NCBI RefSeq assembly: GCF_029232205.1
Contig: NZ_CP107255.1
Span: 930,001 to 962,000, forward strand
Source: Candidatus Saccharimonadota bacterium
GTDB taxonomy: Archaea; Nanohalarchaeota; Nanosalinia; Nanosalinales; Nanosalinaceae
Direction of reading: 5' to 3'
DNA: 32,000 nucleotides
Positions within the stretch are counted from its first letter, which is position 1, and each line of letters begins with the position of its first letter. The translations under genes were made by a program, and so were the position numbers. Positions 5,956 to 17,398 of the stretch are shown here, piece by piece. A model generated the notes under the pieces. That model saw only the letters and a list, made by a program, of their open reading frames with translations. It made no database searches and had not been told where the DNA came from.

Positions 5956-6318
5956 TTAGCAAGAGTCCATTACTTGCCATCCGTTGGCACCGGAGTATTC
6001 AGGGTTGTCGCTTGTAACACATACTTCTGCGGATTGCCAGTCGCTAATACCGTTTGAAGTTGCATCGGCACCTCTAACTGTATCTGTTATTGGATTACCG
6101 TCGTTAGACAGACAGGTGCTCGGTAGCGAGAAGTCATCTCCCTGAACGCTGCCTGCAAGCTGGTTACTCATTGAGGTAGTACAGGCATTTGTGCTTGTAC
6201 TGGATGCGAAGTTTCCTAGCGTTCCTTGAGTTGTGAATGTGAGGGCCATTGAGACCATCATTAGTACTGCTGCTGCAATTATTAGCCATAGAACCTGTGA
6301 AAGGCCTTTACGTTTCAT
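5956..6318 (-). CDS. prepilin-like protein (class III signal peptide)
   Basis: MKRKG-LSQVLWLIIAAAVLMMVSMAL is followed by a polar S/T/N-rich domain with 4 Cys. A TATA-like tttttatac (minus-strand reading) is centred about 25 nt upstream of the ATG. Confidence 0.75.
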   Translation of the reverse strand: MKRKGLSQVLWLIIAAAVLMMVSMALTFTTQGTLGNFASSTSTNACTTSMSNQLAGSVQGDDFSLPSTCLSNDGNPITDTVRGADATSNGISDWQSAEVCVTSDNPEYSGANGWQVMDSC

Positions 6319-6416
6319 AACTAACTTGTTGGTTAGGCCTGTATAAAAATACTTGGAAATTAGCTTCGCTTTGAAACAGAGATAAATAGAAAGAAAATAG
6401 AGAGTATATTTGCTCT

Positions 6417-6704
6417 CTAAGGCTGTGAGAGATCGATCTGGATGCTGGAAACGTTTAGCTGGTCTCCTTCATCTGTTTCGATTTCATCTGTTCCTATTGA
6501 GATGTCTTCGATTTCTGCGTCTTCAACGAACCTGTCTCTTACAATTTCAGCTACGTCTACTGCTCTGCTGATTGCTTTACCTCTTGCTTTGACGTGTACT
6601 GTTTCGTGGCCTTCGCTAAATTGAGTTACAACTGCTAGAACGTAACTCATTGCAGGCTTGGATCCTACGTATACTGTGTTGTCGTCTTCTTGTTCTTCTG
6701 GCAC
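6417..6704 (-). CDS. albA: DNA/RNA-binding protein Alba
   Basis: The Alba core [19 protein letters not shown]...[24 protein letters not shown] is present. The start is GTG, preceded by AGGTGA (6711-6716). Confidence 0.93.
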
Positions 6705-6737
6705 TAGTAATCACCTGTACTTATTATTGGAAGCTAG

Positions 6738-6749
6738 AAATTTAAATTA
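6738..6749 (-). promoter_or_regulatory. TATA-like box for alba
   Basis: taatttaaattt (minus-strand reading) lies about 40 nt upstream of the GTG start. That spacing leaves a short leader carrying the Shine-Dalgarno. Confidence 0.4.
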
Positions 6750-6756
6750 GATAGGT

Positions 6757-7878
6757 CTAGTCATCGGTGAAATCGTGGTTGTAAGGGTCGACTATGAATT
6801 CCATGTATCTTTTTCCAGAGTTAACAGGTACTTTTGAGAACTTATCCTTTAACACCAGCTTTAGATTTGATTTCTGCACAGTTAGAGTAACTTTAGCCTG
6901 ATCTTCCCAGTCATAGCACGTGCCATTTGTGCTGGCGCAGCACGAGCCAACGTCATTTCTAGTCTTATGTGTTTGTTTAACGGAAAAATTGTTTGAAGTA
7001 GCGCCGTAGTCTAAATTCTGGCTAGGCCCTTTCAAGACTACTTCATCATACACCATATCTTTGTAATTTGTGCCAGAGGAAATCACGTTGTAGACCCCCT
7101 CATTAACTTTTTGGTTAGCGCTTGACAGAGCATTATCTTCCGCAGTTGAGAAATCACTGTGGCCTATAGAGCATTGTTTTGTGCTCTTGCCGACATATTT
7201 ATCGACAGACTGCCAATTATCATAAATCTGATAAAGCGTTCTGTTAGCTTCTTCAGCCATTTTAAGATATCTGTTTCCAGTAGCATCGAATTCAAGATTT
7301 AGGAAAGAGTCATTTGCTTTGTACATTGTCTGTCCATCCGGCAGATCACAGTTAACCTGTATCGGGTTTGCGGCAAAAATATTGCCTTTTAGGGAGTAAG
7401 GATTTTCTTCGAACCAGACTCCAAGACTGTAGTCAGGCCTTTCACATCTTCCTGCCTGGCCGGAAGTTACCATATTGTTTAGATCCTGTTCTACCTCATT
7501 GTTTAGTTTGCAGCTTATTTCTCCTATTATTGGCAGCGTTGAACAGGTGTTTCCTGGTATTCTGTTGTATGGAATATTGTTTGAGCTGGATTTGTAGATT
7601 TCATAGTCCCAGTCCACGTTTGGGCCTCCTCCCTGTTTCGCCATCTCATAGGTATTCTGGTATGTAGTGTAGAGTGCTGCTGTTGGAACGTAGTTGTAGA
7701 AATATAGCTCTCCGTAGGCCTTGGTATCCGCCATTCTGTCTAGATCTTTTACAGATGTGTCCAGGTTGTCTGAGAAGTAGCTGTTTACTGGTAGGGACAT
7801 CATTCCGAATACTAGAGAGAGCACTAGGAGGCCTACTGCTGCGAGTACTGCTGATGGTTCTCCTTTTCTATCGTACAT
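6757..7878 (-). CDS. large prepilin-like protein (373 aa), Cys-rich extracellular domain
   Basis: MYDRKG-EPSAVLAAVGLLVLSLVFG is followed by an N/S/T/Y-rich domain with 8 Cys. A strong Shine-Dalgarno GGAGGTG (7885-7891) sits 6 nt before the ATG. Confidence 0.78.
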   Translation of the reverse strand: MYDRKGEPSAVLAAVGLLVLSLVFGMMSLPVNSYFSDNLDTSVKDLDRMADTKAYGELYFYNYVPTAALYTTYQNTYEMAKQGGGPNVDWDYEIYKSSSNNIPYNRIPGNTCSTLPIIGEISCKLNNEVEQDLNNMVTSGQAGRCERPDYSLGVWFEENPYSLKGNIFAANPIQVNCDLPDGQTMYKANDSFLNLEFDATGNRYLKMAEEANRTLYQIYDNWQSVDKYVGKSTKQCSIGHSDFSTAEDNALSSANQKVNEGVYNVISSGTNYKDMVYDEVVLKGPSQNLDYGATSNNFSVKQTHKTRNDVGSCCASTNGTCYDWEDQAKVTLTVQKSNLKLVLKDKFSKVPVNSGKRYMEFIVDPYNHDFTDD

Positions 7879-8422
7879 TCAGTACACCTCCTGATTCGTA
7901 GTATATTGTGATTCTGCCTTGGCCTCCTTGAACTGCTATTGGGTAGCTTACTCTTGAATATTCTGATACCTGGCCTACACTCAGGACAGCTCCGTTCTGA
8001 TCGTATAGCTGTACCATGTAAGGTTTGTTGCCGTAGCTATTGTTCATTACTGTTCCAATATAGTTAGAGATATCGGTTTCCGTGTCGTTGTAGTCTACTC
8101 TGGTACCGTTCAGCCATATATCTTCGCCAGGACTTGATGAAAGGAATTTAGATATGACTGTGTAGGCCTTTTGATCCTGGTATTTTCCGTACGTGACGCT
8201 GTCGGCTCTCCATAGCTTGTCAACCATTATCCTTGTGGCTGAGGTTCTGATCCGGATTTTTTCGGCGTTGAAGTTGACATTTTTATCGACATTGACGTTC
8301 TGTGTGTTTTCCGCCATTGCATTCAGTGAGAAAATGTAGATTGCTATCATTGTGACTATGATGAAGACCATGGTGAATCCTAGGGCCTCTATTAGGCCTT
8401 TACGAGGTTGGGTATGGGTCAT
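7868..8422 (-). CDS. prepilin-like protein (184 aa)
   Basis: The N-terminus is MTHTQPRKG-LIEALGFTMVFIIVTMIAIYIF. The gene overlaps both neighbours (8400-8422 and 7868-7878). Confidence 0.75.
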   Translation of the reverse strand: MTHTQPRKGLIEALGFTMVFIIVTMIAIYIFSLNAMAENTQNVNVDKNVNFNAEKIRIRTSATRIMVDKLWRADSVTYGKYQDQKAYTVISKFLSSSPGEDIWLNGTRVDYNDTETDISNYIGTVMNNSYGNKPYMVQLYDQNGAVLSVGQVSEYSRVSYPIAVQGGQGRITIYYESGGVLNVR

Positions 8423-9005
8423 AGACGTAGATTCTCACTGGGAGTTTTGAATGGTTTTTGTCGTTTCTTACTAGTAAAGCTGTGGATACTACTGCTCTCT
8501 GTCTTACTGCTGGATGCATTGAGATACATTTACTCCTCGTGGCCTGATTATTGGTACCATTAACTGTAACAGACTTGAAATCTTCATTTGCATCTCCTAG
8601 GCCATTCCCTTGAGGATCTACTGCCTCATTTTCAAGGATTCTTATACCGAAGGCAAAGTTTTGGCCATCGAGGCCTTCAACTTCTTCTATGTAGCAGTGG
8701 TCTGTTCGTCTAAATACATTGTATCCTATTCCGTTCGGCCCAGGGTTGTAGTTAGAGAAGTACTCAACAGGTATTACTCCTCTTCTTTGAGTGTACTCGT
8801 AGCCATAAAGATCCTCTGTATCTGCATCTAGAGACAGTATATTTTCTAGTACTATGGCCTTTCTGTAGTCTTCTGTCTGTGTTGCTTCGATGTTGTGATT
8901 TATCTGTGTTAGGCCTCCAAGGAAGAATGAAAATATTACCATTATACCCAGAAAAATCATTACTGCATATGCTATATAGGAGATTGAGTCAAGTTCAATA
9001 GCCAT
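8400..9005 (-). CDS. pilin-like or membrane-anchored protein with an N-terminal hydrophobic helix (201 aa)
   Basis: The N-terminus is MAIELDSISYIAYAVMIFLGIMVIFSFFLGG and the protein has 2 Cys. Its start abuts the upstream stop (9005/9006). No basic-G leader is present. Confidence 0.65.
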   Translation of the reverse strand: MAIELDSISYIAYAVMIFLGIMVIFSFFLGGLTQINHNIEATQTEDYRKAIVLENILSLDADTEDLYGYEYTQRRGVIPVEYFSNYNPGPNGIGYNVFRRTDHCYIEEVEGLDGQNFAFGIRILENEAVDPQGNGLGDANEDFKSVTVNGTNNQATRSKCISMHPAVRQRAVVSTALLVRNDKNHSKLPVRIYVYDPYPTS

Positions 9006-9431
9006 CTAGCTAGGGCACCCAGATTCATTTAGTATGAGGGTTGATTGTCCTGAGCGGTATTCTTTCTGAATACAGAGAGATCCGTTAACCGGTTCGTAAA
9101 CAGATGGTGCTATTATATTGTCATAACTGATCATGTATGGTTCTATCTGACTGCTTCCAACAGATCCTGAGAAGTTGAGACTTAGATTATTGTCATTTTG
9201 ATCATATTTTATCTGGTATCTTTCCATGCTAAGAGCTATGTGGCCTTCCGGTACCGTCTCCATGACCATCATGGCATTTATTACTCTCTCTGCCTGAAGA
9301 TCTACGGCCTGGTGGCTTGTGTAGTCAACACTCTGTCCAGCCGAACCATTAGTCAAGACGATTAGAAGGCCCATCACCATTAGGCCTACCAGGCTAAGAA
9401 TCATTGCTCCTGACACTCCTTTTCTTTTCAT
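9006..9431 (-). CDS. prepilin-like protein (141 aa)
   Basis: The N-terminus is MKRKG-VSGAMILSLVGLMVMGLLIVL. The protein has 2 Cys near the C-terminus and several N-x-S/T sequons. Confidence 0.75.
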   Translation of the reverse strand: MKRKGVSGAMILSLVGLMVMGLLIVLTNGSAGQSVDYTSHQAVDLQAERVINAMMVMETVPEGHIALSMERYQIKYDQNDNNLSLNFSGSVGSSQIEPYMISYDNIIAPSVYEPVNGSLCIQKEYRSGQSTLILNESGCPS

Positions 9432-9433
9432 GA

Positions 9434-9910
9434 CTAATTCTCTTGCACTTCAACAAGTACTGCAGGTTTTCCGTTAACCTCTGTATCGTAGGAAACCGTT
9501 ACATTGTACGGTTCGCTCTTCTCAAATACATGGTGTAGCCGAGGCCCTGAATGGAACTGAATGTTGCAGCTGGCAATATAATCGCTTTCAGCCAGTAATG
9601 TGCTATCCTGAACTTTTGTCGCACGGAACTTTTGATCATTGTCTGGATCATCTTCCTCCGAAACAAGAGTGACATTCATCTTGGAGGAGAGCTGGAAGGT
9701 ATTACTTCTCTGATCTGCCGAGCTTCCCTGAACACATACATTCCTTGTAGGTAGGAAGACCTGTTCCTCAAGTTTCTGTGCATCATTGCTAGTAGCGCTC
9801 ATACCCAGAACATTTTGCAGAGATCCCACACCCACACTAATACTTGAAACCGTCGCCATCAATCCCAAGAGTGTAAATACCGTTGCAGATGCTGCAAGGC
9901 CTTTATGCAT
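9434..9910 (-). CDS. prepilin-like protein (158 aa from the ATG at 9910)
   Basis: The N-terminus is MHKG-LAASATVFTLLGLMATV. GAGGTGA (9919-9925) sits 8 nt upstream of this ATG. The track ORF start at 9982 is an unsupported extension. The protein has 2 Cys. Confidence 0.72.
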   Translation of the reverse strand: MHKGLAASATVFTLLGLMATVSSISVGVGSLQNVLGMSATSNDAQKLEEQVFLPTRNVCVQGSSADQRSNTFQLSSKMNVTLVSEEDDPDNDQKFRATKVQDSTLLAESDYIASCNIQFHSGPRLHHVFEKSEPYNVTVSYDTEVNGKPAVLVEVQEN

Positions 9911-10139
9911 TTGCTGGTTCACCTCTGTCAGATTGATATGCTGTGTTCTTACAGAATTCCTCAGGGTTGTCCTGATGGGCATTTCTTCCTATACATCCGA
10001 GAAGATCAGATCTATTGTTTCCGGCCTCAGCTCCTTTGTTGCCAGAGTCTTTCACTATAGTGTTTGCTGCTCCAAAGAGTGCCGAAATCAGTATTACTGA
10101 CAGTACTAAAGCTCCAACTACTTTAATTGCTGCGTGCAT
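9903..10139 (-). CDS. small pilin-like or membrane-anchored protein (78 aa)
   Basis: MHAAIKVVGALVLSVILISALFG is followed by a polar tail with 2 Cys. The gene overlaps both neighbours (ATGCATAA-type junction at 9903-9910). Confidence 0.6.
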   Translation of the reverse strand: MHAAIKVVGALVLSVILISALFGAANTIVKDSGNKGAEAGNNRSDLLGCIGRNAHQDNPEEFCKNTAYQSDRGEPANA

Positions 10140-10323
10140 ATCGGATACCTGAGATTATTGTTATTGATTTTATGAGAGAGGTGTTTGTTGCATTACCTCC
10201 GAAATCAACGAATCTGCCCGCGTAATTATTTGTAAGAACTCCGAGAACTGCGATTAGAATGATTACAAGCATGAATGCCATTACTATTGATAGACTGATT
10301 TCGAGGCCTTTCCGCGTTGACAC
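10123..10323 (-). CDS. small prepilin-like protein (66 aa, GTG start)
   Basis: The N-terminus is (GTG)STRKG-LEISLSIVMAFMLVIILIAVLG. An A/T box is centred about 27 nt upstream. The GTG start lowers confidence. Confidence 0.6.
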   Translation of the reverse strand: MSTRKGLEISLSIVMAFMLVIILIAVLGVLTNNYAGRFVDFGGNATNTSLIKSITIISGIRYARSN

Positions 10324-10355
10324 ATGGTTATTTTGTGAGAGCCTGTTAAAATAAT

Positions 10356-10493
10356 CTAAGGGGTTGGATAGGTTACGTTTCCTGCGAAGTTGCCTGCCAT
10401 TGAGTCAAACCACCCTGAGAAGCCCATGAATATGACTGAAACTATCATGACTACAAGTACGAGCATTGCTACTGTCTTTACTGATACTTCCAT
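10356..10493 (-). CDS. 45-aa single-helix membrane or pilin-like peptide, absent from the supplied ORF track
   Basis: My hand translation is MEVSVKTVAMLVLVVMIVSVIFMGFSGWFDSMAGNFAGNVTYPTP. GGTGA (10498-10502) sits 4 nt upstream of the ATG. The ORF fills the gap between two pilin-like genes. Confidence 0.55.
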   Translation of the reverse strand: MEVSVKTVAMLVLVVMIVSVIFMGFSGWFDSMAGNFAGNVTYPTP

Positions 10494-10502
10494 GTTGTCA
10501 CC

Positions 10503-12116
10503 CTAGTTGATTCTGATATCATTTATTCTTATCACCGCGTCCTCTGTTGTTCCTGAGGCCCATGATTCCCATGCTTCTAGTTCTACCCGATTAAAGTCTC
10601 CGTTCATGTTCTTTGAGTGTTCCCAGACGACGTTTCCTGAGCTATCTGTCATCTCCCATTCTACATTAGTTCCTGTCTTTCTCAGAACGATCGTATACTC
10701 CTCGCCAGTCTGATAGTTTGCAACCACGCCATAACTATCTCCCGCGGTATCTCCTGGATGCTGGTATGGAGGATCGTTGTTTTCATTGCAAGTTCTGCAG
10801 TACATCCATAGTTCATCAGTTCCTGTCGCATCAGTGTTGATATTGGTTACTCTGTCATTAGATGAATCTATCACATCTATTCTGAAGTGGCCTCTCGTTT
10901 CGAAGTATACATCAAATTCAATTCTCTTCTGGCCGGAAGGAAGATTCCAGACCATCTGATCGTCTCCATAGGAGTCATCTGGCCTAAAGACGTTGGTTCC
11001 AGATTCTTCATACAAAACTCTATCGTTGTTAAAGTTGTAGCTGTCTGGGGGGCTGGTAAGCTGGTTTATTATGCGTTGATTTGGAGTCGGATTATTACTC
11101 AGAGTACAGCTGCTGTTCATATCAGTTATCTGTATCATGCCATACAAGTTATCCTCGTTGTCTCCAGTACTGAGCACGCCGAGCATATCTCCAGAGGCCT
11201 CACCTGCGTTATGTGGAGATCCTTTACGGGTTTCAATGTACCCTTCATCTCCAGGACAGATTAAAACTTCTACATAGTGATCCTGGCCATTATTGGTTAC
11301 ACTATTTTCATCTTTTGGGAATCCATTTTCTTCACCAGGTTTGGTTAGCCATGGACCATCATTGTACTCATCACAGTAGAGTCCATCATTCTCTCCACCA
11401 TCTTGATATCTCTGCTCGATAGTCCTTCCGCCTCCTTCAGTATTAACTCGTGAACTTCCTCCTCCATTCTTGAAGAACAGGGTGAAGAAGCTGTAAGGCT
11501 TTTTGTTTATTATTTTCTGTCCATTCTGAGTAACAGCTTGAGAAGCATAACCATCTCCTACAACCGGTTTCCAGTCAGCACATCCAGGACCGAAAAGCCA
11601 GTCACTGTAGCCTGCTTTTCCATTCGGGCCATCTCCTGTAGAGACTCCTGCAAGGGTGGCTGCTGAGTTCGATCCGAATGCTAGGCCAGTCTTTAATCTA
11701 AATGGAGAGATAGAGGAGTTAATTTTGAATTTTATCCGGCCATACTTCCCCTCCATATCATTTCCGCTGCTGCTGTAGAGCTCTTGAGCGCCTTTTGCTA
11801 GGGTACTACCTGCTCCAGCACATGGAACCGCGCCGTCATCTGTGAGCGAGGTTGATCTTAAATCAGAAAAAGTCTCTCCTTCAATGTCATCGCAGCTCCA
11901 GGCGCGCCAATAATTGTACTTTAGAAGCTCTCCAAATGTCTCTTTATCATCTACTACAACCGTAGTGTTCACGTTTGTGAACCTCTCAGCTTCTCTGAAT
12001 CCTTCTCCTACTTTAGCTCCTAGAGGCCCAAACATTGCTCCGGATATTACTGCTGCCACCAGAACTGTAAGCATTATTTCTCCGAGGCCTGCTTCTAGTG
12101 CTCCTTTTCTTAGCAT
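10503..12116 (-). CDS. large prepilin-like protein (537 aa) with a C-terminal beta-rich domain; candidate tip adhesin
   Basis: MLRKG-ALEAGLGEIMLTVLVAAVISG is followed by a G/N/D/S-rich region with 8 Cys. The last ~150 aa show alternating beta-strand-like patterns (RIEFDVYFETRGHFRIDVID ... EYTIVLRKTGTNVEWEMTD ... AVIRINDIRIN). Confidence 0.8.
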   Translation of the reverse strand: MLRKGALEAGLGEIMLTVLVAAVISGAMFGPLGAKVGEGFREAERFTNVNTTVVVDDKETFGELLKYNYWRAWSCDDIEGETFSDLRSTSLTDDGAVPCAGAGSTLAKGAQELYSSSGNDMEGKYGRIKFKINSSISPFRLKTGLAFGSNSAATLAGVSTGDGPNGKAGYSDWLFGPGCADWKPVVGDGYASQAVTQNGQKIINKKPYSFFTLFFKNGGGSSRVNTEGGGRTIEQRYQDGGENDGLYCDEYNDGPWLTKPGEENGFPKDENSVTNNGQDHYVEVLICPGDEGYIETRKGSPHNAGEASGDMLGVLSTGDNEDNLYGMIQITDMNSSCTLSNNPTPNQRIINQLTSPPDSYNFNNDRVLYEESGTNVFRPDDSYGDDQMVWNLPSGQKRIEFDVYFETRGHFRIDVIDSSNDRVTNINTDATGTDELWMYCRTCNENNDPPYQHPGDTAGDSYGVVANYQTGEEYTIVLRKTGTNVEWEMTDSSGNVVWEHSKNMNGDFNRVELEAWESWASGTTEDAVIRINDIRIN

Positions 12117-12337
12117 ATGCTACCATCTGTTGCGTCCGCTACTACACTTGAAATTGCCTTCATGTATGGGCTCTGGCAGCTGCTGGTGGTTTCTGCGCCG
12201 AAAAGTGCTGGCAGAAGATATGGCATGACTAAGGCCCCGAAGGCTATTGAGAGGAATAGAGCCATTATTATTCTCATGCTCCAGCCCATTCCTTTGCTTT
12301 TAGCGTAAAAGTTGAGGGTTTTGAGAAAAGTCTTCAT
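12110..12337 (-). CDS. small prepilin-like protein (75 aa)
   Basis: A longer leader, MKTFLKTLNFYAKSKG, is followed by MGWSMRIIMALFLSIAFGALV. The protein has 2 Cys. The gene overlaps the next gene by 7 nt. Confidence 0.65.
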   Translation of the reverse strand: MKTFLKTLNFYAKSKGMGWSMRIIMALFLSIAFGALVMPYLLPALFGAETTSSCQSPYMKAISSVVADATDGSIC

Positions 12338-12360
12338 GTTAGAGAGTTGTGTTCTGTTGT

Positions 12361-12498
12361 TTATAGTAATTTTTCAATAATTCCTGTGACCACGTTGTCG
12401 ATTCCCTGGCTTACTGCTCCGATAATTGCGGCGGCTGCAATCACGGCAACACCCATCAGTACTAGCTCCTGTGTTGAAAACTCTCCTTTTCTCTTCAT
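12361..12498 (-). CDS. 45-aa prepilin (class III signal peptide, helix-only), absent from the supplied ORF track
   Basis: Codon-by-codon hand translation gives MKRKG-EFSTQELVLMGVAVIAAAAIIGAVSQGIDNVVTGIIEKLL. The ATG directly abuts the stop of the platform gene (12498/12499). A GGTGG Shine-Dalgarno-like element sits 8 nt upstream. Confidence 0.7.
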   Translation of the reverse strand: MKRKGEFSTQELVLMGVAVIAAAAIIGAVSQGIDNVVTGIIEKLL

Positions 12499-14670
12499 TT
12501 AGCCTGCCACCTGTGTAACGGATCCTACCATGCCTCCAAATAGCATTCCTACGATTATAAGAGTCATCGTATAGAAGAACATTCCCGAGATCATTATTTT
12601 TCCTATGAAGAGGTTCTTGTATGTAGGATCCTCTCCCTTCTTGATCTTCGTGAAGAAACTTCCCAGTATGTAAAGAAGCTGGATTAGATATACTCCTACT
12701 ACAAACTGCAGTAGCTCTGGAGGAATAGCTGAATCGAAACCAGATATTACTCCCCCAAGGCCTGCTGAGGCTCCCGGCTGGTTTCCGATCTCGGATTCTG
12801 TTACCGATTTTGAAAGAGTTGTCATGGCCGTAATGATTGTCTGAGACATGCCTACTGCAACCCCTGAAACTACTGGTGCCAGCAAGTATGCCAGCATCTG
12901 TATAGTTGTTGTAGTATCTTCCATCAGGTCGTTAAGCTGCTCCTGAGTCTTGTGAATATTCTTCAAGTATTTTGAAATTGTAAGCATTGCTGTAGAGGCC
13001 ATATTGGTTCCTTTTCTGGAGGATTCGATGATGGCCTTCATTACTGTTCTTATCATCTGACTTGGGAACTGTCTCAGTGCGCCGTAACGGTCATCCATTA
13101 TGGATTGTTCAAAGGTCATGCCCATGTCTTTGACGTTTTCTGAGGCCTTTCCAAACAGATTAGATATCTCAAGTTCTGAAGTAGCCTCTGCAGCTTCCTG
13201 TAGTGCAATTTCTACTGGTGTTCCCCCTGAAATCTTGTTTCCTAGTTCGAATAGTGCGTTTGGGAACTGGTCTTCTATTTTGGAGAGGTTTTTTTCAGCT
13301 TCTCTTCGTTCAAGATTTCCAAGCGTTTTTACGGCCCCTATTCCTACTCCGAGGCCGAAAATTATGGACACGCTTCTCATAAGCATCGGTAGTGGATCTA
13401 GTGCTCCTCCAGACTGTAGGTATATTGAGGGAACCTGACTCACGCTGAAGTCTCCTGCAGGGTAGAGAAGTAGTAGGCCTTCTCCAGCTCCTAGTGTAGA
13501 TAGGTATCCTACTACGCCATATGTGGCGAAGAAGAAGAATATTATTATTCCTACAGGCCATACTGGCGCTCTTATTGTCTTTCCTAGTACATCAAAGGTG
13601 TATTTTCCTCTTTCTGGCAGTGTTGAGTCATCTACCGGTTTGGTTGCTACTGTTGGCGGCCTTGAGCTGAGCACTCTTTTCATGAACCAGTAGAGGAATG
13701 TTGGCAGGAGCACGTTGAAGAGTAGGAAAAGGTGCATAGGTGTGATGGCGTCTCCCATGAATACGGAGATAAGCGGGAGCATGATCATACCAAGTACCGG
13801 AAGCATGGCTCCCATCGCGTTCAGGATCATGACAGGAGTCTCCAAGTTCTGCGCATAGTGTTTCATTTTCTCCTGTGTTCCGTCCAGAATGTTGTCGATC
13901 GAGTCCTGAAGCATAGATTCTCTTCTCTGTGGATCAGGCTGATTCATCGCAGAACGAAGAAGATTCAGCGATTCGAGGAAGTCATCGTTGTAGTCCTTCC
14001 ATCTTCTTGTGTAATTTTCAAGCGCACCATCAATCTTGTTGTACTTCCCTATCTCCAGATTCCATAGTACTGATTTCAGATCGTCCGAGATCGGGCCTTC
14101 CAGGTTAAGTGCTGCGAAACGAACTGCTCCCTCCAGATTAGGAGAGCTTCTCATGTATACTACCATGTACAGAATTGCAAGAATCATTTCTCCACTGCTT
14201 TCTATTAACTTGGACTGCGCTGCGTACTTGGGCTTGTAGTATGTATAGGCTCCCGCTATCATCGGAGCAGTCATCATTATCATCATGATCGATATAGGGA
14301 TGAGGCCTCCCAGAACCAGAGTGTTAATCATGAAAAGCATCATCCAGGCCATGAAAGAAAGCAGGAAGACCCCTACTGTTGCAGACATAACCATTCCTGG
14401 CGTTATATCCCATCCAAGAAGATTGATAGGTGGCGTCAGTTTTTTGTGAGTCTGCTCTCCGGCCTTCATGTTAAATACGTTTGCCATTTCATAGCAGAGC
14501 TTCTCATAACTATTTCTCTCCTGTGATCTCTCTTCATCTTCCTTGTAGTCCTTGTAAGAACGCGAATATCCTTGGCCTCCATCTTGATTGTTGTATGGAG
14601 GCATACTTACGTCTCTATCTAGATCATCTAGTATTTCATTTATCTTGTCCTGTTTTTCGTTCTTATCCAA
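12499..14670 (-). CDS. FlaJ/TadC/PilC-family polytopic platform protein of a type IV filament system
   Basis: The 723-aa product has an acidic cytoplasmic N-terminus, then alternating clusters of TM helices and soluble T2SS-F-like helical domains (ILYMVVYMRSSPNLEGAVRFAA..., IALQEAAEATSELEISNLF...). It lies immediately downstream of the secretion ATPase. Confidence 0.88.
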   Translation of the reverse strand: MDKNEKQDKINEILDDLDRDVSMPPYNNQDGGQGYSRSYKDYKEDEERSQERNSYEKLCYEMANVFNMKAGEQTHKKLTPPINLLGWDITPGMVMSATVGVFLLSFMAWMMLFMINTLVLGGLIPISIMMIMMTAPMIAGAYTYYKPKYAAQSKLIESSGEMILAILYMVVYMRSSPNLEGAVRFAALNLEGPISDDLKSVLWNLEIGKYNKIDGALENYTRRWKDYNDDFLESLNLLRSAMNQPDPQRRESMLQDSIDNILDGTQEKMKHYAQNLETPVMILNAMGAMLPVLGMIMLPLISVFMGDAITPMHLFLLFNVLLPTFLYWFMKRVLSSRPPTVATKPVDDSTLPERGKYTFDVLGKTIRAPVWPVGIIIFFFFATYGVVGYLSTLGAGEGLLLLYPAGDFSVSQVPSIYLQSGGALDPLPMLMRSVSIIFGLGVGIGAVKTLGNLERREAEKNLSKIEDQFPNALFELGNKISGGTPVEIALQEAAEATSELEISNLFGKASENVKDMGMTFEQSIMDDRYGALRQFPSQMIRTVMKAIIESSRKGTNMASTAMLTISKYLKNIHKTQEQLNDLMEDTTTTIQMLAYLLAPVVSGVAVGMSQTIITAMTTLSKSVTESEIGNQPGASAGLGGVISGFDSAIPPELLQFVVGVYLIQLLYILGSFFTKIKKGEDPTYKNLFIGKIMISGMFFYTMTLIIVGMLFGGMVGSVTQVAG

Positions 14671-14673
14671 GCA

Positions 14674-16935
14674 TTACACCTGCTGTTGCAGCCATTCATC
14701 CCATCTTGCAAATATCCTATCATTATCTAGATCCCCGTATTCTTCTCTAACGCGCTGTGAAAGTATGTGATAGCGCTGATTGGCTTTTACAACAAAGTCG
14801 GCCTCCAGAAGTTGTTTATCGCTTTCCTGATTGGCCTCTACAAGTCTCTCCTTTATCTGCTGTCTTAGCTTGATATTGTCCCAGACCGCTTCCCAGTCGT
14901 TCTTCCATTCCTTGATATTTTCAGCGATCCTGTTCAGAATCAGTGACTCGCCGTTCATCAGTTCATCGGTGGGAACTAGCTCATCTTTATTGCTGTCATA
15001 TCTCATCAGATCGACAAACGCGTTTTCATCTTGAGGATCCTCCTGCCAGTCCTTCCTCACCTCGGTAATGCCAGTAACCCTACGGTATGTGTCCATACCG
15101 TCGGGACTTCTGATCTTATTCACACTGACAATAATGTCTGTAGCCTTGAAAGAAGTTCTTGGAACATTAAGATCGTTTACAACACGGTCAAAAACAGAGT
15201 ATGCATCTTCGCCGTGAATCGTACCTCCTACGAAGTTTGCAACAGCTCCAACACGCATGGCCTCGTAAAGAGCCTTTGCCTCATCAGAACGGACCTCTCC
15301 AACAACAAGAGCAGAGTCTCCTAGCCGTAGTGAGGTTCTAATTGCCTCATCCGCTGCCATCTCATTCTCAACCTGCGTAATAGCAGATCTGGACTTCATA
15401 CGCTCGACATTGTAACCTAGATCCTTCATCTGAGGAATAGGCAGCTCAAGCGTATCCTCAACAGTCACAATCCTGTGACTCTTCATAATCTCAAGCATAG
15501 AGGCCCCAAGAATCGAGGACTTACCAGCGCCACGAGTACCTGCAAACAGAACCGAGCGATTCCCGTCAACAAGGAAGGATATCAGGGCCGCGCCAAGAGA
15601 GTTTATCATACCATTATTCATGAAAAGAGGTAGTGTCCAAGCCTTTGAACGGTGTCTTCTGAACGCGAACGCAAGGCCTTCTGGCGAAAGATTTTCCTGT
15701 ATAACTGCTACACGGGCTCGGCCTCCAGGAACCTCAGCCTCAGTATCCAGTACCGGATTGGCCTCGTCAAGAGGTCTTCCTGATCTGATTCTGAATCTTG
15801 TGGCCCATGACTCTGCCTCGTCCTTTGTAGGTATTAAGTTTGTCTCACATTCCCCGTACTCCTGATGGGAGATATACATCGGAGAATCTCCTATCGGAGA
15901 GTTAATGTAGACGTCCTGGATTTTTGGATCAGCTAATAGAAGCTCCAAGACACCAAGGCCTGAAGTATACCGGTTAAGAATTGAACCTAGCTCTTCTAGC
16001 TCTTCTAGAGATAAATCAACACCCATCTGATTTGCTATATCTCTGAGCATGTCCTTCCCGATATTCTGGAATACCTCATTCATTCTCTCAGGCCTGGCAA
16101 ATTCTCCTTCTTCAGGTTGGTGAGAGGCCATGTATCTTCTTGCTGCATCCAGCAATGTGTATTTCTGCTCTGACAGATTGAATTCCGGAGGATTGACATG
16201 GTATACAGGCCTTGTCTGATCGGGCACCCTATATATAGAAACTTCTATGTTGTCTCTGACCTTGTACCGGTCTACTTCCTCTCCTCTTTCTGGAGGAAGA
16301 CTCATGTACTTTGTAAGCATGAAGTTAGGCCTTACAAGAGGGTGGAAGAACTCTCTGTAGATTTCTCGGTCTCCTACATGGTGGCCTGTAAGATACTGTT
16401 GTGCATCCTGTATTAGCTGGCATTCCTCTATTCTGTCAATTACAGGATTGAGAACATCTTGTATAAAGTATTTCAGACATCTCTGCTGCTCAGGATATGC
16501 ATTTTGCCTGTCCTGATTTAGATGTCTTTTCTTACGAGTAAGCTGGACATAGGCCCCGATAGGATCTTTTCTCATCTGGTCGAAAACACTTTCCTGTACG
16601 TCAGGAAGATGCTGACTGTATACTGTATCGCATTTATCTGTCTTTACGTTCTGAGAAAGGTGGCCCTGCGAGGATATATCCTGTATTACCTGTGAGATTT
16701 CTCTAAGGTATTTTACCTGTTGTTCATCGTATTCGTAGTCTCTCGACTCGGATAGAACTACCGATGATGCATCAGGAACTTCCTGCAAGATGTTTATTAC
16801 TCGGGACATGACCTGAGGATAGTCCTCGAGGCTTGCACCGTAGATTGAGCCCAGCGTGTTTACCTCTACAGTGCCTGATTCTTCATCATAGTCGTATTCG
16901 AAAACATCTTTGTCTGTTACAGTCATACCCAGCAT
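14674..16935 (-). CDS. type II/IV secretion-family ATPase (FlaI/GspE/VirB11-like), 753 aa
   Basis: Motifs are Walker A FAGTRGAGKSS, Walker B-like ALVVGEVR, the Asp-box region VTVEDTLEL, and the His-box GGTIHGE. Long N- and C-terminal extensions flank the core. Confidence 0.92.
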   Translation of the reverse strand: MLGMTVTDKDVFEYDYDEESGTVEVNTLGSIYGASLEDYPQVMSRVINILQEVPDASSVVLSESRDYEYDEQQVKYLREISQVIQDISSQGHLSQNVKTDKCDTVYSQHLPDVQESVFDQMRKDPIGAYVQLTRKKRHLNQDRQNAYPEQQRCLKYFIQDVLNPVIDRIEECQLIQDAQQYLTGHHVGDREIYREFFHPLVRPNFMLTKYMSLPPERGEEVDRYKVRDNIEVSIYRVPDQTRPVYHVNPPEFNLSEQKYTLLDAARRYMASHQPEEGEFARPERMNEVFQNIGKDMLRDIANQMGVDLSLEELEELGSILNRYTSGLGVLELLLADPKIQDVYINSPIGDSPMYISHQEYGECETNLIPTKDEAESWATRFRIRSGRPLDEANPVLDTEAEVPGGRARVAVIQENLSPEGLAFAFRRHRSKAWTLPLFMNNGMINSLGAALISFLVDGNRSVLFAGTRGAGKSSILGASMLEIMKSHRIVTVEDTLELPIPQMKDLGYNVERMKSRSAITQVENEMAADEAIRTSLRLGDSALVVGEVRSDEAKALYEAMRVGAVANFVGGTIHGEDAYSVFDRVVNDLNVPRTSFKATDIIVSVNKIRSPDGMDTYRRVTGITEVRKDWQEDPQDENAFVDLMRYDSNKDELVPTDELMNGESLILNRIAENIKEWKNDWEAVWDNIKLRQQIKERLVEANQESDKQLLEADFVVKANQRYHILSQRVREEYGDLDNDRIFARWDEWLQQQV

Positions 16936-16966
16936 TATTATTGGCGCGTTTCTAAAATAAAAGTGA
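16936..16966. promoter_or_regulatory. 31-bp divergent intergenic region with crossed A/T boxes
   Basis: taaaataaaa (16952-16961) lies about 21 nt from the minus ATG at 16935. attattatt (16934-16942) lies about 29 nt from the plus ATG at 16967. Confidence 0.35.
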
Positions 16967-17398
16967 ATGCCTCAGCAAGACATTGTAAATCAGTTAGTAG
17001 ATAGGGTCAACGACTTTAACAGAAGGATCCGTGATCTGGAGGAGAAAGTTAGGAACATCAACGCCCGCGTCAACACTCTTGACGACAGCCTGCTTAAGAA
17101 GACCAAGTCTTTGAGCAGCGATGTTCAGGATATCAACGATGATATGAGCGAGATTAGAGATAGGATAGCCAATCTTGAGGTAGATATTAAGGAGATTAAT
17201 AGAGAGAAACGTAAATTTGTAACTTCTCAGGAAATAGAGGAGATTGAGAACTACATGGATTTAATGAATCCAATCAACTCCTCTTTCATGACTGAGAAGG
17301 AGGTTAAATCTCTTCTCAAGAAGCAGGAGACTGATGGAGGCCTGAGTAGGAAAGAGGTAGAGCAAATCGTAGAGAAAAAGCTCCGCGACCAGGATTAA
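16967..17398 (+). CDS. coiled-coil protein (143 aa), function unknown
   Basis: A clean ORF transcribed divergently from the ATPase. It shows heptad-like repeats (RIRDLEEKVRNINARVNTLDD ... RIANLEVDIKEINRE). Confidence 0.75.
   Translation: MPQQDIVNQLVDRVNDFNRRIRDLEEKVRNINARVNTLDDSLLKKTKSLSSDVQDINDDMSEIRDRIANLEVDIKEINREKRKFVTSQEIEEIENYMDLMNPINSSFMTEKEVKSLLKKQETDGGLSRKEVEQIVEKKLRDQD

Follow-up and report, generated by a model that had tools for sequence, protein, structure and literature searches.

Organization of the locus

The window analyzed here is a stretch of 32,000 nucleotides (contig NZ_CP107255.1, positions 930,001 to 962,000) from the closed genome (1,046,959 bp, 45% G+C) of a nanohaloarchaeon. 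All coordinates refer to this window unless they are given as genome positions. An operon on its minus strand begins with the gene for a 753-aa secretion ATPase of the FlaI/TadA/CpaF-like type (14674..16935), which matches PF00437 with 55 bits and the NCBIfam FlaI and TadA models with 148 and 118 bits, both under the equivalog cutoffs. Next is the gene for a 723-aa TadC/FlaJ-like platform protein (12499..14670, minus strand) in which two domains are fused. It matches PF00482 (T2SSF, 25.2 bits) in two stretches and is found in 60 of the 70 genomes of the phylum that we sampled, all from a single order. The platform gene is followed by two very small prepilin-like genes, ORF A (45 aa, 12361..12498, minus strand) and ORF B (75 aa, 12110..12337, minus strand), and then by a string of about ten larger ones that appear in the list of open reading frames (5956..12116, minus strand). 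The operon order is ATPase, platform, and then pilin-like genes, with ORF A as the third gene, immediately downstream of the two machinery genes. No prepilin peptidase is encoded in this locus, and a candidate lies elsewhere in the genome.

Most of the larger prepilin-like genes begin with a leader ending in RKG and a hydrophobic helix, and a Pfam scan of the string at 5956..12116 gives no match. Two of them, starting at positions 9431 and 6318, have the same MKRKG leader as ORF A. A further 45-aa ORF within the string (10356-10493, minus strand; MEVSVKTVAMLVLVVMIVSVIFMGF...) encodes a hydrophobic helix and has no K-G site.

ORF A begins with ATG and translates to MKRKGEFSTQELVLMGVAVIAAAAIIGAVSQGIDNVVTGIIEKLL, according to both the sequence and the ORF list. 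The initial annotation placed a 45-aa ORF at 12361-12498 on the minus strand, and we obtain the same translation as written there. The MKRKG leader is encoded at 12484-12498, the predicted 40-aa mature peptide (EFSTQE...EKLL) at 12364-12483, and the TAA stop at 12361-12363. The start codon had been described as abutting the platform stop, and the platform TAA (12501..12499) is indeed followed by the ORF A ATG (12498..12496) with zero spacer. The product would have a mass of 4055 Da if cut after Gly5 and 4655 Da if uncut, and since the mature form contains just one Lys, close to its C-terminus, it would escape tryptic proteomics; the protein contains no N-glycosylation sequon, and no paralogue was found elsewhere in the same genome. 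The label "unannotated" does not hold, because an identical 45-aa protein is present in NCBI and in NCBI nr; the label reflected only a 60-aa display cutoff.

ORF B has a leader ending in KSKG, a hydrophobic helix, and a cysteine-bracketed C-terminus, and only one locus lacks it. An alignment of 24 ORF B sequences contains a nearly invariant K15-G16 and invariant C54 and C75. The cysteines form a C-x18-20-C arrangement that brackets the last ~20 residues, and the C-terminus also carries an ADxTG motif. The gene has a dN/dS of 0.14-0.16, and AlphaFold2 predicts a helix at residues 21-49 and a low-confidence helix at 57-70. The predicted mature form has ~59 residues (6236 Da), and searches of ORF B against Pfam and NCBIfam yield no match.

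Conservation of ORF A

An open frame of 45 codons is by itself within chance, so the reality of ORF A rests on its conservation. A small ORF with a K/R-G site and a hydrophobic stretch lies behind the platform gene in 22 of 22 Nanohaloarchaeota genomes of the same family and in five of seven loci from families elsewhere in the order. These ORFs encode 28-59 aa in the same-family genomes and start between -29 and +37 nt from the platform gene stop. The frame at this place is open in every locus, with length kept while protein identity falls to 16-33%. The closest named relative is strain M3_22 (87% platform identity), and further relatives include Ca. Nanosalina sp. VS9-1 and Ca. Nanohalobium sp. 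Among three genus members, dN/dS is 0.12-0.20, and third codon positions account for 20-27 of the 29-48 differences. The ratios are rough, given that synonymous sites approach saturation. ORF A is under purifying selection. The initial annotation had raised the case of a spacer that is conserved as nucleotides while the ORF is not, and it is the ORF itself that proves to be conserved, both across the 22 same-family genomes and by these ratios.

An antisense ORF (12347-12502, plus strand) was checked separately because its wobble positions coincide with those of ORF A. Stops interrupt it in 12 of 26 loci, among them 10 of the 14 loci of the window's own subtype (A1, described below), and it was rejected as a real gene.

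Searching an ORF A profile against 1.84 billion representative proteins (E<=0.001) recovers only 30 clusters, all of 44-52 aa, and a word-based homologue search recovers only four close relatives. The uniform length of the clusters indicates that ORF A belongs to a small, lineage-restricted family and is no fragment of a larger protein. We conclude that ORF A is a genuine gene, conserved among relatives, and that it encodes a pilin-like membrane peptide predicted to consist of a single helix.

Translation and transcription signals

A Shine-Dalgarno-like AGGTGG lies within the last platform codons (12507..12512, minus strand), 8-9 nt before the ORF A ATG. The GGTGG previously noted 8 nt upstream is found at 12511..12507 with an 8-nt spacer. 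A better description is AGGTG (12512..12508), a pentamer complementary to the 3' end of the 16S rRNA (GGATCACCTCC). Genome-wide, AGGTG occurs at -18..-3 of 8.6% of long ORFs versus 0.5% in the control, a 17-fold enrichment, and the surrounding caggtggcag is kept in both other members of the genus.

A second element, which resembles a BRE/TATA pair and reads GAAAAA-TTACTATAA (12361..12375, minus strand), overlaps the end of ORF A, covering its final five codons and its stop, and is located at -38..-24 from the ORF B ATG. The last 9 nt of ORF A are TTACTATAA (12369..12361), at -32..-24 from that ATG (12337). The complete 15 nt (GAAAAATTACTATAA) are identical in the three genus members, with synonymous sites elsewhere in the gene near saturation. 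Throughout the genome, hexamers composed only of A and T peak at -32..-28 from start codons (18% at -31..-29, versus a background of 3-4%), which is the signature of TATA boxes before leaderless mRNAs. An A/T box also lies ~24-36 nt before the ORF B start in 10 of 10 loci with an A-B gap of 23-51 nt, and in the seven of these that come from other genera it reads TTTAAA, TTAAAT, or similar. Overall, ORF B has its own TATA box, of the kind that gives a leaderless mRNA, in about half of the lineages. The TATA-like box that the initial annotation saw in the 3' end of ORF A is therefore backed by both position and conservation. It is well supported that a promoter inside the 3' end of ORF A serves ORF B and the later genes, with ORF A belonging to the ATPase-platform unit. 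This runs counter to what had been drawn from the box, namely that expression of ORF A could be decoupled from that of the minor pilins, and it speaks against ORF A as the major subunit.

The ATPase-platform-A unit likely has its promoter at a TTTTATTTTA box (16953..16962, minus strand) that is 18-27 nt before the ATPase ATG and 27-36 nt before a second in-frame ATG, a placement that fits the genome-wide TATA peak. Only 31 nt (16936-16966) separate the ATPase gene on the minus strand from a divergent coiled-coil gene on the plus strand (ATG at 16967). That TTTTATTTTA fills this space suggests that back-to-back leaderless promoters may have one A/T-rich element in common.

The linkage of ORF A to its neighbors varies among lineages. 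In most, it abuts the end of the platform gene or overlaps it by 4-29 nt, so the amount of protein made is likely to be that of a motor component and not that of a shaft subunit. In loci with a second subtype, A2 (L038, L040, L043, L045-L047, and L052-L054), ORF A overlaps ORF B by ATGA and also overlaps the platform gene, with no sign of an internal promoter. In Nanosalina-type loci (L044, L049, and L050), a TATA-bearing gap separates ORF A from the platform gene, with a TTTATA box ~28 nt upstream of ORF A, and ORF A overlaps ORF B. Being uncoupled from the platform, it travels with the pilin set in these loci. ORF A is thus located where the motor genes give way to the pilin genes, and it goes along with one set or the other.

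Family anatomy and predicted structure

Nineteen A1 sequences align without gaps from the K-G dipeptide onward, and a further table covers 28 representatives. A K-G or K-A is present in all of the aligned and tabulated sequences, and the K, followed by G or A, is the sole nearly invariant column among the 19. The [KR][GA] site is located at a fixed 40-44 residues from the C-terminus, giving a predicted mature length with a median of 41. The window's ORF A has the basic leader ending in [KR]-[GA] at -2/-1 (MKRKG), and in most relatives the leader has only three residues, MKG or MKA. Cleavage at K-G had been proposed to leave ~40 residues, which agrees with the 40 aa of the predicted mature form and its class III (prepilin-type) N-terminus.

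About six semi-polar residues follow the site. The +1 residue is E in ORF A and often K, R, or N in relatives, and such residues are unusual for archaeal class III sites by the FlaFind rules. At +6, the window's genus has E, and most other genera have Y or H. The hydrophobic stretch that comes next has 18-20 residues, and in ORF A it begins only at +7, behind the polar EFSTQE, whereas in type IV pilins the ~20 hydrophobic residues of the N-terminal helix come right behind the site of cleavage. The A1 proteins end in a tail of ~15 residues that is amphipathic (mean hydrophobic moment 0.37) and acidic (mean charge -1.9), with the recurring pattern (N/D)-x-(L/V)-(E/D)-x5-A-(L/I)-x-x-A-(L/F). A tail of this character is as expected of a surface exposed to brine. 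AlphaFold2, run on the family alignment, predicts one unbroken helix from residue 9 to residue 44 (mean pLDDT 82.8), so the description of ORF A as a helix without a globular head is borne out by the model.

The A2 subtype, which replaces A1 in roughly half of the genera, also has the K-G and the helix. It ends soon past a W...LP motif, ~29 residues after the site, and has almost no extracellular tail. Three Nanosalina-type loci encode a 28-aa form (MKMQEIVAIAV...) that lacks the K-G.

Comparison with known pilins

ORF A gives only sub-threshold noise (SteA-like_C and SecE) against Pfam and NCBIfam. It has no match at E<=1 to PF04964 (Flp_Fap) or to PF04021 (Class_III_signal, DUF361), and none to PF07790 (Pilin_N), whose members have a KG-[IV]TPV... 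N-terminus. A search of the ORF A profile against PDB sequences returns nothing significant, with an archaeal "flagellin-like protein" (8rey_M, E=2.1) as a hint only, and Foldseek finds no match in the PDB for the single-helix model. The QxSxExxxL signature of the Epd pilins (+1 Gln, +5 Glu) is not matched by ORF A, where E-F-S-T-Q-E-L-V-L fits at S3 and L9 and fails at Q1 and E5.

The slot right behind the platform gene is that of the major subunit in comG (ComGC) and T2SS (GspG) operons. The gene order of ATPase, platform, small pilin, and larger pilins is also the same. The ComGC and GspG subunits, however, have 100-150 aa with a globular head and no sequence relationship to ORF A.

The bacterial Tad pilins are the closest in size and shape. 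They have 40-60 aa and build helix-only filaments in which a C-terminal polar patch provides the filament surface, and the mature PilA of C. crescentus has 45 aa (PMC10710030). ORF A, with 40 aa predicted for its mature form and 40-44 for its family, is also predicted as a single helix with no globular domain, its polar C-terminal patch could form a filament surface, and its assembly would depend on a TadC-like platform and an ATPase of the CpaF/TadA-like type. Many of its relatives place Y or H at +6, the position of Tyr6 in Flp pilins, and often [KR]-[YH] at +5/+6, which is a resemblance only to the Flp motif. ORF A itself differs in having no G/xTAIEYGLI motif, Q5-E6 in place of Glu5-Tyr6, and no Tyr. 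Its leader has 3-5 residues in the family, its gene is located behind the platform gene rather than at the operon head, and its host is archaeal and has no outer-membrane components. The initial comparison of ORF A to Flp pilins thus stands for size, at the lower edge of 40-60 aa, and for the modeled helix-only shape, but not for a Flp_Fap family match or the motif.

Among archaeal pilins, the smallest that have been established experimentally are those of the Epd type. The M. maripaludis major pilin MMP1685/EpdE has 74 aa as a precursor and 62 aa when mature (PMC3875500, PMC4858521), and related minor pilins have 54-63 aa in mature form (PMC3875500). Like ORF A, these archaeal pilins are short, carry a class III leader whose last residue is Gly, and have an acidic residue near the start of the mature part. 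They differ in that the mature ORF A protein would be ~20 residues shorter and has no +1 Gln or +5 Glu, and in that its gene is within an ATPase/platform operon instead of standing alone. The statement that ORF A is shorter than characterized archaeal pilins is consistent with these values (40 aa versus 62 aa for mature MMP1685; PMC3875500).

The locus as a whole corresponds to one that has been described before. Hamm et al. (2024) reported a type IV pilus-like "Locus 2" with coiled-coil proteins in DPANN archaea (PMC11291902). Like the locus in the window, it combines a CpaF-like ATPase and TadC with divergently flanking coiled-coil genes and occurs in Nanohaloarchaeota. Filament proteins (FlaF, PilA) were named only for Locus 1, the small genes behind TadC in Locus 2 were left undescribed, and the Locus 2 machine was suggested to mediate host contact (PMC11291902). 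Pilus motors with no recognizable pilins have been reported for nanohaloarchaeal and other DPANN genomes (PMC9563170, PMC4858521), and pilins are stated as not annotated in such genomes (PMC9563170). A broader survey describes T4F systems as widespread except in Asgard and DPANN archaea, with those of DPANN largely undetected (PMC13705601).

Candidate prepilin peptidase and other pilus loci in the genome

The prepilin peptidase candidate is a 301-aa membrane protein with a long C-terminal extension (genome positions 622503-623405, plus strand) that is kept in 38 of 41 relatives. It covers the whole PF01478 model, scoring 19.6 bits against a cutoff of 26.5. A profile of 20 orthologues has the FlaK peptidase of M. 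maripaludis (3S0X) as its best PDB match (E=5e-4), and the invariant D25 and WGGAD115 align with the two catalytic Asp residues of FlaK. The protein is a candidate for a divergent FlaK/PibD-like A24 prepilin peptidase. By these alignments, the case for this host being able to process class III leaders is adequate, though not strong. No pilus locus surrounds the candidate in this genome, where its neighbors encode a LamG protein, an archaeosortase-like protein (PF09721, 38 bits), DUF460, and a Hef-like helicase. In many relatives the gene is 3-4 kb from a weak TadC-like match.

A second type IV pilus locus (genome 342905-348340) comprises a tandem pair of genes for PilA-type pilins whose N-termini read KG[IV]TPV, the gene for an ATPase of 571 aa (PF00437, 116 bits), and separate genes for two TadB/TadC-like proteins (71 and 58 bits). 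One more PilA-type pilin gene stands alone (genome 33829-34245). This second locus is probably the Locus 1 of PMC11291902, with the PilA-type pilins serving that machine. The genome further contains a third, weak T2SSE-like ATPase (559659-560036) and a giant open frame of 8,880 codons on the minus strand (256299-282941) that begins with an N-terminal hydrophobic segment. This frame resembles the giant surface proteins of the SPEARE type that have been reported for Nanohaloarchaeota.

Possible functions of ORF A

The fixed K/R-G/A site, the leader, the position behind the platform gene, the predicted helix, and the acidic tail are together best accommodated by a pilin-like subunit. We propose, with a probability of about 0.62, that ORF A is a processed type IV pilin-like subunit of the Locus 2 pilus, Tad/Flp-like and helix-only, and that it probably helps to build the filament by which the cell attaches. 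ORF A would be translated by coupling to the platform gene through the abutting stop and start codons and the AGGTG match, and its product would enter the membrane with MKRKG inside the cell. The FlaK-like A24 peptidase (genome 622503-623405) could then cut after Gly5, and the TadC-like platform and the CpaF/FlaI-like ATPase could lift the 40-residue helix (4.05 kDa) from the membrane. In the filament, the hydrophobic two-thirds of the helix would pack into the core, and the acidic, amphipathic last ~15 residues would face the brine. We infer cleavage, filament incorporation, and abundance of the product from the gene and its setting. In this role, ORF A would be shorter than any characterized archaeal pilin. 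Against the proposal stand the six polar residues that separate the K-G from the hydrophobic stretch, the unusual +1 residues, the leader of only three residues in most relatives, the nearly tail-less variant of about half of the lineages, the three loci with no K-G, the likely motor-like level of production, the peptidase score under the Pfam cutoff, and the lack of a match to any pilin family or PDB entry.

A narrower assignment makes ORF A the major pilin that forms the shaft of the Locus 2 filament, with a helix-only mature protein of 40 residues behind a leader of 3-5 residues. This would agree with its place as the first pilin-like gene behind the platform, the slot that ComGC and GspG occupy in their operons, and with the absence of a paralogue in the genome. 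Its strictly conserved length and a tail whose acidic, amphipathic character suits a surface point the same way, and in size and predicted shape it is like the 45-aa PilA of C. crescentus (PMC10710030). However, the conserved internal promoter precedes ORF B and not ORF A, whose translation is tied to the motor genes in most lineages. The tail-less A2 form, with ~29 residues after the K-G in about half of the genera, cannot form a soluble filament surface, and ORF B, which is present in all loci but one, carries a disulfide-bracketed mini-head. We consider the shaft assignment doubtful. The initial designation of ORF A as a candidate major subunit does not follow from the promoter, coupling, and A2 evidence, and we lean against ORF A as the sole major subunit. 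The rival candidate for the shaft is ORF B, judging from its sequence and distribution, and a further variant has ORF A and the 59-residue, Cys-pair ORF B protein co-polymerizing into a two-subunit filament. As a pilin-like protein, ORF A may be a shaft subunit, a partner of the 75-aa ORF B, or a low-copy priming subunit.

If ORF A is instead left uncleaved, it could be a single-pass micro-protein that acts as a membrane accessory of the TadC-like platform, for example by stabilizing it or by gating pilin entry. The abutting stop and start codons, or the overlap of 4-29 nt in most lineages, suggest production in a one-to-one ratio with the platform, and A2 is little beyond a membrane helix. 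The atypical +1 residues, the three-residue leader of most relatives, and the missing K-G in Nanosalina-type loci also fit an uncleaved protein, as does the lack of homology to any pilin family. Yet a generic membrane anchor needs positive charge and has no need of a K/R-G/A dipeptide held at constant spacing from the helix, and this dipeptide is the most conserved feature of the family. The leader is also the same as that of bona fide prepilin-like neighbors, ORF A is coupled to ORF B and not to the platform in Nanosalina-type loci, and in A1 the conserved tail, acidic and amphipathic, points to a surface that is exposed. We consider an accessory role about as doubtful as the shaft assignment.

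A chance frame in a conserved spacer is very improbable and close to refuted, since 45 codons alone are not improbable but omega is 0.12-0.20 and the frame is open in every locus at 16-33% identity with its length kept, and the same holds for a SecE identity, for which the weak Pfam similarity (12.3 bits, E=0.17) falls short of the PF00584 cutoff of 22.7 and the "SecE" label of one homologue in a JGI record is spurious because the real SecE, at 29.5 bits and above the cutoff, is encoded elsewhere (genome 81361-81510).

Implications

Returning to the pilin-like subunit, ORF A (~41 aa mature in its family) and ORF B (~59 aa mature) form a conserved pair of tiny prepilin-like proteins directly behind the platform gene. 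They are good candidates for, and likely to be, the missing filament subunits of the Locus 2 machine. The two define new families within a type of protein that is already known, and they do not amount to a novel kind of system. Their predicted mature masses of 4055 Da (ORF A) and 6236 Da (ORF B) provide targets for mass spectrometry, and the motif is offered as a means of finding such genes, which standard family models fail to recognize.

If ORF A forms filaments, then the helix-only architecture of the Tad type would extend to Archaea, a point of relevance to the proposal that Tad pili arose in Archaea. If it is also the shaft subunit, then it would be the shortest archaeal pilin known and an archaeal counterpart of the bacterial Tad pili, in a filament that these obligate symbionts would use to attach to or enter their haloarchaeal hosts.
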